DNA of 64,000 bases, from contig CAWGMQ010000012.1 of assembly GCA_963823665.1 (NCBI GenBank), positions 1 to 64,000 on the forward strand. Reading direction: 5' to 3'. Position 1 is the first letter of the stretch, and every line of letters starts with the position of its first letter. The notes beneath the pieces were generated by a model that did not search any database, was not told where the DNA came from, and saw nothing but the letters and a program-made list of their open reading frames with translations. Origin of the DNA: an uncultured Planctomycetota bacterium. GTDB lineage: Bacteria > Planctomycetota > Planctomycetia > Isosphaerales > Isosphaeraceae. This document shows positions 44,446 through 53,170 of the stretch, in pieces. The position numbers were made by a program, and so were the translations under genes.

Positions 44446-44832
44446 TCAGCGATGGGCCGCGGTTCGTTCCTTCCAAGCTGCCAACGCCGCTTCGAGCAGT
44501 TGCTTCAACCCAGGGTTTGCGACGTCGTCTACACTGCGGAGCTGCACATGGCGGTGAACCTTGCCGCTTCCCTGTAGCAACCCATGAGGATCCGGCAGCT
44601 CAGTGCCGCGCGCGATCCCAACTTTGACGCCAGTCTTGCTCATGAGCAGCGTGCAGATCGTGTCCTTGTATCCCGGTCCGTAACCGTAACCGAGGAGCCG
44701 CGCCGATCGATCGACCGTTTCGATCGCATTCGGCACTGTCTGCCCGACAAGCTGACGCGCTGCTCGCGCGATCTCTTTCACAGCCAGTGGATAGAGGGCC
44801 AGAAACGCGTGAACATCTGGTGGGATCGGCAT
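44446..44832 (-). CDS. DUF1801 domain protein
   Basis: 'GIARGTELPDPHGLLQGSGKVHRHV'. Confidence 0.8.
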   Translation of the reverse strand: MPIPPDVHAFLALYPLAVKEIARAARQLVGQTVPNAIETVDRSARLLGYGYGPGYKDTICTLLMSKTGVKVGIARGTELPDPHGLLQGSGKVHRHVQLRSVDDVANPGLKQLLEAALAAWKERTAAHR

Positions 44833-44977
44833 TTTGCTTCTCCTCGTTGCCGCATCGGCGCATCGGCATATGACGCGCACCGATCCTGCCTTTTCAGCCC
44901 GGCGCGTCAGTGACGGGGGAGTTAAACCAGCCTCTTGCACCCCCGGCACCCTAGTATCGTCAGACGGCCCGCTCCCT

Positions 44978-45580
44978 TCAACTCCCCGCCACCTCTTTCC
45001 ATCGCTTGTCCCATTCCCACATTTGAAGCGCCTGTTCCGGCGTTAGCGGCGCGCCGAGTTGACTTGCCCAGTGGCAGATCTGGCCCCGGTGGTGGGCATC
45101 GTGGGTGATCGCGCCGCAGACGAGGGCGACGACATCCGGACGAAGGTCGGGCACGTGGCCACCGCCTTCGATCGAGTGTTTGATCAAGCGTACCATTGCG
45201 GCCGCGCTCGTCGCGAGCGCCTCCTTGGCGTCTTCGGGTGTGACCTCCGCGCGGTCGAGTCTGGCCGGCGGATTCTCGCTCCGGAGTGACATGGCAAGCC
45301 GCATGCAGCGCACGTTATGCATGTGGGCAAACGTCGTGGCGATGTTGCGTCGTTTGGAGCAAGGGGGCTGGGCGCGCCAGATCTTGGGGTCGAGAGCGGC
45401 GATCAGGACCTGGTTGATGCGCTCATTGGTCAGGTAAGCCTCGACCAAAGCACGTCCCAAGTTGACCGGCTCGCGCCGGTTTCGTGCCGCGGCGTTGCTC
45501 GGCGGCTTGAGCGGCAATTTCTTCGTCGACTTTACCGGGTCGGGAGATTTTTTGCCGTCTGTTGCGTTGCTCTTGGGCAT
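44978..45580 (-). CDS. DinB family protein
   Basis: 'FAHMHNVR' and 'THDAHHRGQI'. Confidence 0.85.
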   Translation of the reverse strand: MPKSNATDGKKSPDPVKSTKKLPLKPPSNAAARNRREPVNLGRALVEAYLTNERINQVLIAALDPKIWRAQPPCSKRRNIATTFAHMHNVRCMRLAMSLRSENPPARLDRAEVTPEDAKEALATSAAAMVRLIKHSIEGGGHVPDLRPDVVALVCGAITHDAHHRGQICHWASQLGAPLTPEQALQMWEWDKRWKEVAGS

Positions 45581-45670
45581 GTGCGATCTCCGCAAGTGGC
45601 CGACCTGACTTTGAATGTTTCCAGGTGAATGCAATAATCGAACGGTCTGAAGCCATTGCAGGAGACCACC

Positions 45671-45860
45671 ATGCCCGCGGCATCAGTGTCAACACCCTTG
45701 CTGACTGCCGAACATTTCGCCGAGCGGCCCGATTCGGGCTACCCCGAGGAGCTTGTCCGGGAATGGATCGTCGCCATGCCTCAGCCGAAGCCCCGTCACG
45801 GCGAGATTTGGAGCAAAGCCGATCGAATCCTCGGCGTCTATGTCGAGGAGCGGGACATCA
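45671..45860 (+). pseudogene. Truncated Uma2 family endonuclease (N-terminus only)
   Basis: 'LLTAEHFAERPDSGYPEELV...MPQPKPRHG'; similarity stops where the convergent FG-GAP gene ends. Confidence 0.7.
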
Positions 45861-47225
45861 TCACTTCCTCAGAAACAGCCAGACGTAGCCATGCGGGGTA
45901 TCCTGGCCGTTGGCAATCGTTCCCGGGCCTGGAGGCTTGAGGTAGCGCTTCAGGCTCTGGATTATCGGTTCCATCTCGTCGGTGATCGCTTTGTTCTCGG
46001 GCCTCGCTTCGATCTCTGCCTGCTTTTTGCGAACTTTCGCCTGAACCTCGGCCGTGAGTTGCTCTTTAATGGGAATCGGCTCCCAGAACTTCAACATCTC
46101 CTCCTGGATCTTCCTGTTTCGTTCGGCTACGGTCGGCTCAAGCCGTTCCAGCCTAGAGCGGAGCTCGGCGACTTCCCCGCGCTCGGCTTTTGAGAGATTG
46201 GCGCGGGGCGAGATGTAGGTGCAAAAATCGCCGACAAGTAGGTCCAGTTTGCCATCGCGGTTGTAATCGGTTACGTCGATCTGGGAGCGAATGCCCGGCT
46301 TCGGCTCTTCTTCGGAGTCAAGAAACTCCGAATAGCCAATTCCCTTGTGCCGAGTGCACTAGCTCGACGGCCTCGGCCAATTCGGGGCGCCCAGCGTTTC
46401 CGACGTTTCGGAACCAGTAGACCGCCCCGGTGGCCGCGCCGGAGAGGATGTCCCAGCGTCCGTCGCCATCCCAGTCGGCAACCACCGGCGTACAATGGCC
46501 CTCCGGGATCTGGATCGGCTTGCCTCCGGCCGCGATCACGATGTTGCTCGTGGCGAACGCCGGCGCCCGACGCGTTCCTTCGTTGAGTCGTAAGTTCAGG
46601 CCGCCGACGTATGCCGCCGAAGAGGAGGTCGAGGTCTCCATCTCCGTCCCAGTCGACCATCGCCGGCCAGCTCCCGAACGACTCGACGCTAACCTCTTGA
46701 TCGGGCTTTCGCAGCACGGGCTTGCCCGACTTGTCCTTGATCGTCTCTCGGGCCTTGAACTTGCCCTTTCCCTCGCCGCGAAAGAGATAGATCTCGCCAG
46801 GGTCATACGAGCCGCTGATCAGGTCACGAGTGCCGTCGCCGTCGAGGTCCACAAACTGTGGACTGGAACCGATGCATCAGTAGATGGGCACTGTGGCGAC
46901 GACACCCCCAGCCATGAGCAACTCGCCCGCGGCGAACTTCGGCTCCAGGACCGTTCCAACGTTGCGATAGAGGCGGAACTCTCCGCTAAAATCGCCCACG
47001 AGCAGATCTCGCCGGCCGTCGCCATCCACATCGTGGAGGCACGGGCCCGGAGTGGGCCCACTGGGGGCCGGAATCGATGACCGCGCCGGCCGCCATGAGC
47101 CGGACGGGTTTCTGAAAGACCGAGTTGGGGGCATCGTCCTTCGTGGAGGTGGAGGATGGCGGCGCTTCCGCCCCGAACGCCGCAACCGCGGCCAGCGCCG
47201 CGATGGACCGGCAGAGCTTTTTCAT
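45861..47225 (-). CDS. Secreted FG-GAP/VCBS repeat protein with in-frame TGA (candidate selenoprotein; also has indel frameshifts)
   Basis: Signal peptide and repeated D.DGDG..DL motifs; ...VATVPIY-TGA(46879-46877)-CIGSSPQFVDLDGDG reads through in frame. Confidence 0.8.
46847..46863 (-). promoter_or_regulatory. Candidate bacterial SECIS hairpin
   Basis: GUCCACA-GUU-UGUGGAC, a perfect 7-bp stem beginning 13 nt after the UGA, with a loop starting GU. Confidence 0.55.
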
Positions 47226-47321
47226 TCTGTCCTCCTGTGTGGTGTCGCTCAGCTCGGCTAGTCGGATTTGAACGGGCCGTGGAGTCGAAACTGCACCGAT
47301 GGACGATTAACCGTGCTGTGG

Positions 47322-48711
47322 TCAGCGGCTCCGTCTGGCCGTCTGTGCGCGCACCTTGTTCTTTTGGTGCTGCGCTACCAAGATCTCGAACAAGTCGTCC
47401 TTCTCGCCGCGCTGGGTCAGATCCTGGCCCGATTTCACGACACCAATATATCCCACGCACATCTCGTCCGTCACTTCGTAACCCCATTTGACAATCTTGG
47501 GTGGTCGGTGGGGATTGCGCGCGTGGTCCGAGTTGTCAAAGTGGGCCACCACAGATACGACTGAGCCCCTGGTCAGACGGATTGGTTCCTCGAAGGAGTA
47601 TGTGTTCTGCCAGGAAGGGTCCCAGTCAGCGATGTAGATCAGGTCCTGCCTGCGACCGCCGGGGTAGGTGACTGTCATGCGAAAATCGCGCCCGAGCTGG
47701 TGCATGTGGGGAGTGACAGCGAGGGCTTCGACGTCGACGGGGACGTACCAGGTTGCTTTGACCTCGACGTTCTTGTTGCCGGGCGAAAGCCGGAAGTCGG
47801 AATTCGTGACGTTAGCCCACTGGAGTGTCCGTTTGACCGGCTTACGAGCGAAGTGAAGCCCCACGCGGGTGCGGTCGACCTCGCGCTTGCCGTCGGGGTG
47901 GTAGTGGACTTGCAGGATCACGTCGGCCCCGCGGGGCAAAGAGCGGCCGATCCCATCAGGGAGGCGCCGGGCTCGTTGCCGGCGGCCCAGCCGCCCAGGT
48001 CGCCGGCGATCTCGACGCCCGCGCCCGCATATGAGGTATACCCCGGCCCCGGCTCGGCCGCGTCCCGCTGGCGGCCGTAGCCGTGGGTGTCGACGAACGC
48101 CATCATATGGTGCACGACGCGGCGATTGCCCGGATTGTATTCAATCGCGGAGATCAGCACGTCACGCGGAAGGTCCGTCGGGATCACAAAGCAGCGGTAG
48201 ACATCCGGGCCCGCGGCGGGGACGTTGAAGTCTTCCGCTAGCTCGATAACGAAGTCGGGCGCACCGAGCGCCCACCCCTCGCTAAACCGCGCCGGCGCGG
48301 GCATGTGCTTCGGTTCACCCCGCGGCGCACCCGCGCCCGCCCACGCCGTGAGCACGGTGATCTCGTCGTCGGTCATCGAACGGTCGTGCATGAGTTTGGG
48401 CCGACCCCAGACGTCGGCTTCCAGGGAGGCATCGACCGGTCGAGAGCCACCGCGGCAATATCCAACGAGCGCTTCCGAACTTGCTCGTACGTCTCCAACC
48501 CGAACGGGCCGATCTCACCGCGACGATGGCAACCCTGGCACCGCTTTTGAAGGATCGCCGCCACGTCCTTGGTAAACGTCGGCGTTCCGGCTTTTCGAGC
48601 CGGCTCTTCGCCCTGCGTCACGGAAGTGCCAAGCCAAAGGCCCCAGACGGCGAAGCCCAGACGCGCGAGGATTGACCACCCCACGGCAGCACCGATTTGT
48701 CGCAACCTCAT
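47322..48711 (-). CDS. Copper type II ascorbate-dependent monooxygenase-like protein with N-terminal CxxCH (frameshifted)
   Basis: 'CQGCH', 'MPPW', 'VVHH', 'LQVHYH', 'PHMHQLG', 'DEMC'. Confidence 0.85.
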
Positions 48712-51509: not shown

Positions 51510-53170
51510 GTTCGGGTTTCGCATTTTTAGGATCAGTCGTATTCAGGAACGTCGATGGTTCTCTTCGCGTCCCCGATCCGTTAGCGTCGTGCGCGTTCGA
51601 CTCGCGCCTGGTGATTTGATGTCGGCTTCCTCGCACGGAATTGGCATGCTGTCTGGGTCCAAACCGGACAACTTTCCCGGCAAGGAAGCCGACCCATGGA
51701 ACTTACACCCTCGTTCGTCCACTTGCTACAGCACTTTCACGCCGTCTTCACCGTCCGACCTTCCAGACCTTCGTGTCGATCGTCACGGGGTGGATCCTCT
51801 CCCATCGCCACCGCTATATCACCGAGGTCATCTTCTCCTGCGGCAAGGTCGGCAACGGCCATTGGTGCCGGTTCCATCGCTTCTTCAGCCACGCCGCCTG
51901 GGACCTCGACACGTTCTCCATGCACCTCGCCAAGCTCGTCGCCACCATTCTCGCTCCAGGCGCCACTCTCTCCTGGGCCGTCGACGACACGCTCTGTCGC
52001 AAACGCGGACTGACCCTCTACGGCGCCGGCATGCATTACGATCCCCTCATCTCCAGCCGCGCCAAATCCCTGGTCAGTTGGGGACACGACTGGGTCGTTC
52101 TCTGCTTGATCATCGTCCATCCCTTCTGGGCCCCCACCAAGGTCTTTGCCTTACCCGTCGCCTTCCGCCTCTACCGCAACCGCCAAGGTCTGACCAAGGG
52201 GAAAAAGAACCGGGGAAAGTCGACCAAGCCCAAGGACGATCCGAATCATCGCACGCGACCGGAATTAGCTCTTGAACTGATCAAGTTGGTCGCCGAGTGG
52301 TTTCCCAACGATGAGATCGTCGTCACCGGCGACAGCGCCTACGGCGGCCAGAGTATCTTGTCTATCTGCCGCCCAACGTTCACCTCATCAGCCATGTCCA
52401 TCCCAAAGGGGTGCTCTACGAGCCGCCCCTCCCAAGACGGAAAAGACCAAAGGGCGCCGCAAGAAAGGAAAACGCTTGCCCGGCATGAAGGAGTGGGCCG
52501 AAGATCCGAACCAACCCTGGACGAACCTCGACTTCAACCAGTTTGGGCTCCATGCCACGCTGGCGGTCAAGACGATCCAGGCCCTCTACTACACGGCTGG
52601 GAGTGACCGACTCCTGACCATCGTCTTGGTGCGCGACCTGGAGGGGAAACGACCCGAGCAGATGTTCTACTGCACCAAGCTCGATTGGACCGCCAGGCAA
52701 ATCCTCTCGACCTACGCCTGCCGTTGGGCCATCGAATGCACCTTTGAAAATTGCAAGCAACTCTTGGGTTTGGAGGATCCCGCCAATCGTCTTCCCAAGG
52801 CAGTGGAACGAACCGCACCGATGGCGCTGATCCTCTACAGCTTGGTGGTCGTTTGGTTCCACCAGACGGGTCACAGTTTCCTCGCTTTCCCTTCCGCCCC
52901 TGGTACCCCAGGAAGGAAGAGCCGTCCTTCGCCGACATGTTGACGACCCTGAGGCGGGTCAGCTACGAGGAGAAAACCGAGAGACTGCTTCCAAAACCGT
53001 CCCGTCTGAAAACCTGGGTCGCCCAGCTCACCGAGCTTCTCAGCCGCGCGGGCTGAGCGCGCACCGGCCTGCGTTTCTTGCCTCAGGTCGATCGTCTGGA
53101 TGGAATCGCCGGAGGGATTTTCACTCCCCGGGCCGCTCGCGAACTGCTTCAGAAAATGCGAAAGTCGAAC
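51510..53170 (+). mobile_element. IS701-like insertion sequence (1661 bp)
   Basis: 18-bp inverted repeats GTTCGGGTTTCGCATTTT / GTTCGACTTTCGCATTTT; TAA duplicated at 51507-51509 and 53171-53173. Confidence 0.88.
51696..53056 (+). CDS. IS701-like DDE transposase (several frameshifts)
   Basis: 'AVDDTLCRKRG', 'VTGDSAYG', 'YACRWAIECTF'. Confidence 0.85.

Follow-up and report, generated by a model that had tools for sequence, protein, structure and literature searches.

The bacterial SECIS element (bSECIS) is modeled, in the accessible text of PMC13188914, as a hairpin with a loop of 3 to 9 nt, a G in the first two loop positions, a stem of 4 to 16 bp, a distance of 16 to 37 nt from the UGA, and a minimum free energy of -7.5 kcal/mol or lower. 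Table S9 of PMC4807772 (2016) lists four planctomycete FG-GAP/ASPIC-UnbV candidates that are split at a UGA and have Gly homologues, with a SECIS element for three of the four. The same table has a row labeled 'hypothetical' with a Cys homologue and a SECIS element, which may or may not belong to the family described here. On the side of envelope redox chemistry, DsbD-alpha reduces periplasmic substrates, and those named as known in the accessible part of PMC3322552 are the thioredoxin-fold proteins DsbC, DsbG, and CcmG.

The window analyzed here is a stretch of 64,000 nt from an uncultured member of the Isosphaeraceae (Planctomycetota; contig CAWGMQ010000012.1), and all positions below refer to it. 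Its features of interest are collected in Table 1. We consider it very probable that a single gene on the minus strand encodes an exported five-bladed FG-GAP propeller with a vicinal selenocysteine (Sec)-Cys pair; that its in-frame UGA is decoded as Sec, giving Sec116-Cys117, appears almost certain from the sequence comparisons. The frame reads VATVPIY-TGA (46879-46877)-TGC-IGSSPQFVDLDGDG. Once three extra bases are left out, the gene comprises 453 codons, Sec being residue 116 and Cys residue 117. The N terminus of the product reaches a 9-residue hydropathy of 2.6 at best, and a comparable hydrophobic N-terminal stretch was seen in 57 of the 60 intact homologues. Among named homologues, the closest (78%) comes from an Isosphaeraceae record. 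Upstream, at 47322-48711 on the minus strand, lie three frameshifted pieces of a gene with a CxxCH-like motif and a copper type II monooxygenase C-terminal domain, which is not a conserved neighbor among the propeller family loci. Downstream, the minus strand at 44446-45840 holds a short broken ORF, a DinB-family gene, and a DUF1801 gene, and a transposase-like gene in two frames was identified by eye on the plus strand at 51641-53056.

Table 1. Positions of the features of the predicted propeller selenoprotein gene within the 64,000-nt window
Feature	Position	Strand	Basis or remark
Single gene, predicted exported FG-GAP/VCBS five-bladed beta-propeller selenoprotein	45861..47225	-	~453 aa with three extra bases discounted
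Shine-Dalgarno AGGAGG	47231..47236	-	5 nt ahead of ATG at 47225; sequence
Signal-peptide-like N terminus (basic start, hydrophobic core)	47166..47225	-	Approximate boundary; judged by hydropathy
In-frame TGA, predicted Sec116	46877..46879	-	Sequence, homologue columns, and contigs
TGC, Cys117, second residue of the predicted vicinal Sec-Cys pair	46874..46876	-	Cys after TGA in family loci
Putative bacterial SECIS: 7-bp stem, GUU loop at 46856-46854, 20 nt past UGA	46847..46863	-	Fold, recoding, and covariation; model in accessible text of PMC13188914
Long helical insertion, last blade	45940..46196 (approximate)	-	Helices 342-377, 388-403, and 405-424 in homologue model; aligned segment
C-terminal strand (G-aromatic-V-W) after helical insertion	45864..45890	-	Strand 443-447 in homologue model; Trp in 58/60
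Extra base (frameshift), probable assembly error	47049		Missing in run X1 contig; tblastn
Extra base (frameshift), probable assembly error	46614		Missing in run X4 contig, depth about 2; tblastn
Extra base (frameshift), probable assembly error	46356		Missing in run X1 and X4 contigs; tblastn

As assembled, 47225-45861 does not form one frame but is broken by the three extra bases, and an intact 450-aa homologue covers the gene in four frame segments (tblastn). Because these bases are absent from near-identical public soil metagenome contigs, some of them of low depth, they are most likely assembly errors. The preliminary description of this locus had proposed one gene read through the TGA; the homologues and the Cys-Cys forms agree with this, although the assembled sequence itself is frame-broken. 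The TGA is genuine, as it is unchanged in contigs from two other studies. The Logan contig of run X1 spans 46793-47142 with 2 other letters and that of run X2 spans 46774-47039 with 1 other letter, neither of them differing at the TGA; the two runs belong to two separate soil studies, and the evidence consists of contigs, not raw reads, with a coverage that excludes 45800-46309 and 46667-46768. At 46827, both independent contigs carry another base, which may be due to strain variation or to one more error in the assembly.

The hairpin GUCCACA-GUU-UGUGGAC (46863-46847; -8.6 kcal/mol) begins 13 nt after the TGA, where the preliminary description had placed a 17-nt hairpin, and its 3-nt GUU loop, its 7 bp, its distance of 20 nt, and its energy lie within the bSECIS model as given in the accessible text of PMC13188914. 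The full pattern of TGA and hairpin occurs once in the 16.5-Mb genome and not at all in the reversed control. Folding of the 20-mer was matched by 2 of 200 shuffles (z = -3.4), and stretches of 40 and 60 nt of the window copy folded no better than shuffles (z = -1.1 and +0.6). Because the fold of a single copy is weak evidence, it is the comparison across the family that carries weight. The conserved hairpin core is UCCAC-AGUUN-GUGGA, and its five pairs were formed in 98.7% of the cells at TGA sites, versus 21 to 50% with slid partners. In 85 of 86 cases, synonymous recoding gave a weaker fold than the real segment, and Pro(+6) is encoded by CCA in 106/134, as compared with 16/301 for the same motif in other repeats of the same genes. 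In 19 contexts the pair A18-U26 is replaced by G18-C26 at the cost of a Val-to-Ala change; the change went in the same direction in 7.8 of 12 independent tree pairs and never in the opposite one (p about 0.008). Residue +7 is Gln or Arg at 136 of the 137 TGA sites and is free in Cys-Cys proteins. Median hairpin energy was -9.6 kcal/mol at TGA sites versus -3.6 at the 9 Cys-codon sites, and values of -7.5 kcal/mol or lower were reached by 97 of 137 TGA sites and none of the 9 Cys sites; the 40 TGA-site hairpins weaker than this threshold count against the element. The hairpin thus covaries at TGA sites and decays in Cys-codon genes, and, as judged from these alignments, the putative SECIS after the UGA is under selection.

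The recoded column was followed across homologues. A set of 147 distinct sequence contexts, pooled from all loci and restricted to sites with Cys at +1, contained 137 TGA, 9 TGC or TGT, and 1 TTG; TGG, TAA, and TAG were absent from these 147 sites. Two samples were free of the +1 Cys restriction. Among 121 genomes of the bacterial family, all 37 best places contained TGA, and TGA-Cys was found at the same column in all 29 close loci that were fetched, a thirtieth being a weak hit to another repeat protein. In a genome scan of all species, 79 loci yielded 63 with TGA-Cys (66 sites, every one of them followed by Cys), 1 with TGC, and 1 with TTG; of the remainder, 6 matched other repeat proteins weakly and 8 gave no hit. 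At the protein level, the best 120 of 824 database hits comprised 80 full-length Cys-Cys proteins, 38 C-halves starting just past the TGA site, and 2 others; three of the Cys-Cys proteins were traced to DNA, which confirmed the Cys codons. An additional TAG was observed within the match of G500. In an unrooted FastTree tree of 209 rows, 16 changes between Sec and Cys were required, 9 of which were forced by supported branches; the place of the window copy in it is unreliable, since its frameshifted sequence was included. In terms of sequence, UGA is seen to alternate with Cys codons across the family. Several full-length members (G407, P0219, P0246, P0248, and P0249) lack the Sec/Cys pair and P0208 retains one Cys of it; the pair is therefore dispensable for the fold.

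The preliminary description had recommended a search of the genome for the Sec machinery, and all four components were present: selA (503 bits, cutoff 268), selB (364 bits, cutoff 242), selD (381 bits, cutoff 125), and a tRNA-Sec with a UCA anticodon (selC). Among 401 genomes of the phylum, each at least 90% complete, 78 contained matches to the propeller family, 73 with TGA and 5 without a stop. A selA match was found in 72 of the 73 TGA genomes versus 271 of the 401 overall, related genomes not being independent. The sole exception, G175, is 90% complete, in 410 contigs, and has an intact TGA gene. Three 99 to 100% complete genomes of a genus without a selA match (0/7) carried Cys-Cys forms, and G407 had neither the Sec/Cys residue nor selA. 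Cys forms in selA-positive genomes were seen in G340, where it is a Cys-Cys form, and in G121. In the bacterial family sample, selA was present in 27 of 29 TGA genomes versus 86 of 121 overall, and the two TGA genomes lacking it are 73% and 76% complete, with only partial, sub-cutoff selB matches. The UGA form thus occurs almost only where the Sec machinery is present, as far as sequence matches tell. Together with the column of TGA and Cys codons and the selected hairpin, this supports the earlier proposal of a vicinal Sec-Cys pair as the likely reading. The presence of selA in 271/401 genomes implies that Sec use is widespread in the phylum. The genome also has 81 AhpC/TSA matches, four of which contain TGA. 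Two of these, L238 (G000:C6:1670717-1671106) and L259 (G000:C4:2630214-2630654), are peroxiredoxin-like UxxC genes with W-U-P-Y-C and SECIS-like hairpins whose spacing is similar to that in the propeller gene, one with the same GUU loop, and serve as an internal positive control; the other two TGA-containing matches lie at C4:2823527 and C3:1914.

The product contains FG-GAP repeats (PF13517, 66.6 bits versus a cutoff of 26.9) and five DxDxDG loops. An AlphaFold2 model of an intact homologue, based on a 60-row alignment, had a pLDDT of 92.1 and a pTM of 0.88, and its best fold matches were GH62/GH43-type hydrolase propellers (Z 18.4, rmsd 3.4, 257 aligned residues, 5 to 14% identity). GH62/GH43-type propellers are five-bladed. 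The beta-propeller guessed at earlier is consequently predicted to be five-bladed, which is borne out in the homologue model and is in line with the five DxDxDG loops and the GH62/GH43 match, and the C-terminal strand probably closes it. Sequence matches included CRTAC1, integrins, and fungal GlcNAc lectins, and Foldseek matches to CRTAC1, lectins, and integrins had a TM of about 0.3. Similarity to Tc-toxin B (Pfam and Foldseek) consisted of weak partial hits (TM of 0.33 or below) over the shared FG-GAP propeller, and a toxin role was rejected. In the model, the Sec-Cys pair falls in the loop that leads into the first strand of blade 2, probably near the central pocket and on the other side of the propeller from the five calcium-type DxDxDG loops; by analogy to the integrin FG-GAP architecture, we take this loop to be on the ligand face. 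In the pocket-side loops of 60 homologues, His and Tyr precede blade 1 in 28 and 27 cases, His and Asp precede blade 4 in 38 and 17, and a third Cys precedes blade 3 in 28. The Cys forms L134-L136, P0251, and P0258 have a second Cys-Cys (HCC) before blade 4.

Outside the phylum, the propeller family is sparse: it was found in 2 of the 151 genomes sampled from the phylum of G123 and in 1 of the 201 from the order of G122, which carries 3 copies; members were also found in records labeled Verrucomicrobiales, Akkermansiaceae, Marinifilaceae, Fimbriimonadales, Alcaligenaceae, and Actinomycetes, which are source labels of bins that may be impure. Copy number reaches 9 TGA copies in G215, and about a dozen copies, some in tandem, were observed in one named assembly (L064, L070, L077, L082, L089, L093, L095, L103, L110, L115, and L127). 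Four protein records (P0233, P0256, P0293, and P0294) start downstream of one Sec site and, in those cases where the end is shown, stop at a second one, and are probably multi-Sec tandem propellers, judging from these records. In P0256, a DsbD_N domain sits between tandem propellers. A profile search against 1.84 billion representatives returned mostly long repeat proteins and added little.

Clustering of gene neighborhoods (4,523 frames) showed no conserved operon, and the only recurring neighbor was a generic kinase-like gene at 14 loci. The recurring partner of propeller relatives is a DsbD N-terminal-type domain (DsbD_N) that contains a CxxxxC pair. This domain is fused to the propeller in 17 aligned Cys-form database proteins and in the TGA forms L138, L158, L097, and P0256, and it forms the overlapping next gene in L134-L136; in the FastTree tree, the fusions fall in several separate clades. 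With a profile built from the family's own fusions, DsbD_N was found near 6 of 9 Cys sites and 5 of 137 TGA sites but at none of 103 unrelated loci; among the 108 TGA sites followed by 1.7 kb or more of DNA, it was nearby in only 5. The window copy has no DsbD_N domain fused or nearby, and the genome carries 5 matches. One observation concerns L234:28-1875 (G000:C3), a protein of 615 aa that begins with a signal-like stretch, contains an internal CxC, and carries a DsbD_N-like domain at its C terminus; by its sequence, it suggests that DsbD_N may serve as an add-on module in several exported proteins with Cys motifs. When the two domains of one natural Cys-form fusion were subjected to complex prediction, the score was weak at 0.37, versus 0.01 for the best control, and no interface was obtained; the runs agreed in at least 63% of contacts, and partner pLDDT was at least 83. 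Of the solved pairs, 116 of 157 reach the score mark, as do 2 of 215 mismatched pairs; with scores of 0.60 or below, 18 of the 157 solved pairs and both mismatches do so.

Because relatives repeatedly fuse to or adjoin DsbD_N, the pair may be an envelope redox site that is re-reduced via DsbD-type proteins. We lean, by a little more than half, toward this reading and favor it over metal binding and over redox-gated binding or hydrolysis. In the proposed mechanism, SelB-bound Sec-tRNA would decode the UGA to yield Sec116-Cys117, and the pair would cycle between the selenol/thiol and a vicinal selenenylsulfide (a disulfide in the Cys-Cys forms). The pair would reduce an extracytoplasmic substrate and be recharged by a DsbD N-terminal-type domain, acting in trans on the window copy. 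More tentatively, with doubt slightly outweighing confidence, we propose that propellers with a Sec-Cys redox site take electrons directly from the DsbD N-terminal domain and make up a large exported family that includes tandem multi-Sec forms. If true, this would add a DsbD-alpha substrate without a thioredoxin fold and a propeller selenoenzyme, in a family present in about a sixth of the sampled phylum genomes with up to 9 copies each.

A different role for the pair would be the binding of a soft metal or metalloid (Cu, Hg, or As) in the envelope, with DsbD-type domains only keeping it reduced. Vicinal CU/UC motifs occur in the metal-related selenoproteins SaoL, HgcA, MbdU, and CopZ-like of Table 1 in PMC13188914, and the His/Tyr, His/Asp, and third Cys residues of the pocket-side loops point the same way. 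However, recurring metal-resistance or transport genes were not seen beside the family loci, and the 9 copies in G215 fit diversification of substrates better, so that we regard this role as rather unlikely. Somewhat less likely still is a lectin, adhesin, or hydrolase-like propeller in which Sec-Cys serves as a redox switch or pocket nucleophile. The GH62/GH43 fold matches, the sequence matches to CRTAC1, integrins, and lectins, and the members without any pair are consistent with it, but identity to the hydrolases is low, the inspected pocket-side loops, which were not structurally aligned to GH43, contain no invariant acidic residue, and the repeated DsbD_N fusion points to electron transfer.

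All of these roles presuppose a selenoprotein, which standard annotation, as predicted earlier, splits in two. The C-halves among the best 120 hits are one instance, and the C-half is also stored separately as atlas clusters of 292 to 316 aa; source names of the homologues are 'hypothetical', 'FG-GAP-like', or 'VCBS'. The preliminary description saw neither room nor a ribosome binding site for a new gene after the TGA: inspection by eye found no Shine-Dalgarno-like sequence between the TGA and the GTG at 46852, yet gene callers do start a second ORF at this GTG, within the hairpin. That the TGA is a sequencing error, disrupts a decayed gene, or divides two distinct genes is nonetheless highly improbable: the three indels in the assembly and the separately stored C-halves would fit it, but the TGA recurs in contigs from two other studies, UGA occupies nearly all homologous sites with UAA or UAG never at the column, uninterrupted Cys-Cys forms exist, and, in the homologue model, a split would detach blade 1 from the other four, which would then lack a signal peptide. 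Readthrough as another residue, by a Trp or Gly code or by leaky Cys insertion, can hardly apply either: it has the TTG of one locus (L082, at a contig end) in its favor, but the alternative residue at the column is otherwise Cys, homologous genes, the window copy included, often terminate in TGA, the hairpin and selA accompany the in-frame TGA, and the only UCA-anticodon tRNA seen in a partial tRNA inventory is tRNA-Sec.

The predicted Sec-Cys propeller would extend the bacterial selenoproteome by a fold and a motif, and it points toward reductive chemistry that depends on selenium beyond the cytoplasm. It also exposes a systematic annotation error: 73 of 401 sampled genomes contain such genes, which are cut at the UGA. 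The planctomycete SECIS elements of the family further form a large set that covaries and at the same time constrains protein sequence, and its many natural switches between Sec and Cys, with decaying SECIS elements, offer a test of why Sec is retained.

The recoding is canonical and the carrier protein is uncatalogued. Table 1 of PMC13188914 (2026) contains no FG-GAP, VCBS, or propeller family among its 119 families, in keeping with the earlier remark that this fold is not classically that of a selenoprotein, and no NCBIfam 20.0 model scored over its cutoff for 8 queries. A literature search that covered sources outside subscription, including the accessible parts of PMC13188914, PMC12013277, PMC13326102, PMC13745706, and bioRxiv 10.1101/2022.07.06.499078, returned no description of a propeller selenoprotein family. 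The ASPIC-UnbV candidates in Table S9 of PMC4807772 are likewise planctomycete FG-GAP genes cut at a UGA, but they have the ASPIC-UnbV domain and a Gly homologue, whereas the propeller family has Cys, and the ASPIC-UnbV Pfam domain had no hit in the window pieces or the full-length homologues. By both of these available tests the two are different families, set apart by the descriptions in that table only. With the bSECIS selenoprotein genes in the accessible text of PMC13188914, the locus shares the in-frame UGA, a loop starting with G and then U 20 nt downstream, selA/B/C/D, and Cys homologues, and differs in its carrier, an FG-GAP five-bladed propeller. Adjacent Sec and Cys also occur in SaoL, SaoC, HgcA, MbdU, KCU-star, and CopZ-like GxUC (Table 1 of PMC13188914), and SaoC is exported according to the accessible part of bioRxiv 10.1101/2022.07.06.499078, as is predicted for the propeller protein. 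These vicinal CU/UC selenoproteins, as tabulated there, have different folds and mostly the CU order, and none of their NCBIfam models hits the propeller protein. The GH43/GH62 hydrolases share the five-bladed fold at only 5 to 14% identity, and a GH Pfam domain had no hit in the family homologues. FG-GAP propellers such as CRTAC1 (9etn), integrin alpha, and the PVL/AAL2 lectins have the DxDxDG loop repeats in common with the family, but at a TM of only about 0.3, and the family is distinguished by its five repeats, the helical insertion, and the Sec-Cys loop. Finally, the link to the DsbD-alpha pathway is the fused or adjacent DsbD N-terminal-type domain with its Cys pair in relatives; with the substrates named in the accessible part of PMC3322552 being thioredoxin-fold proteins, a propeller would be a new kind of substrate for it.
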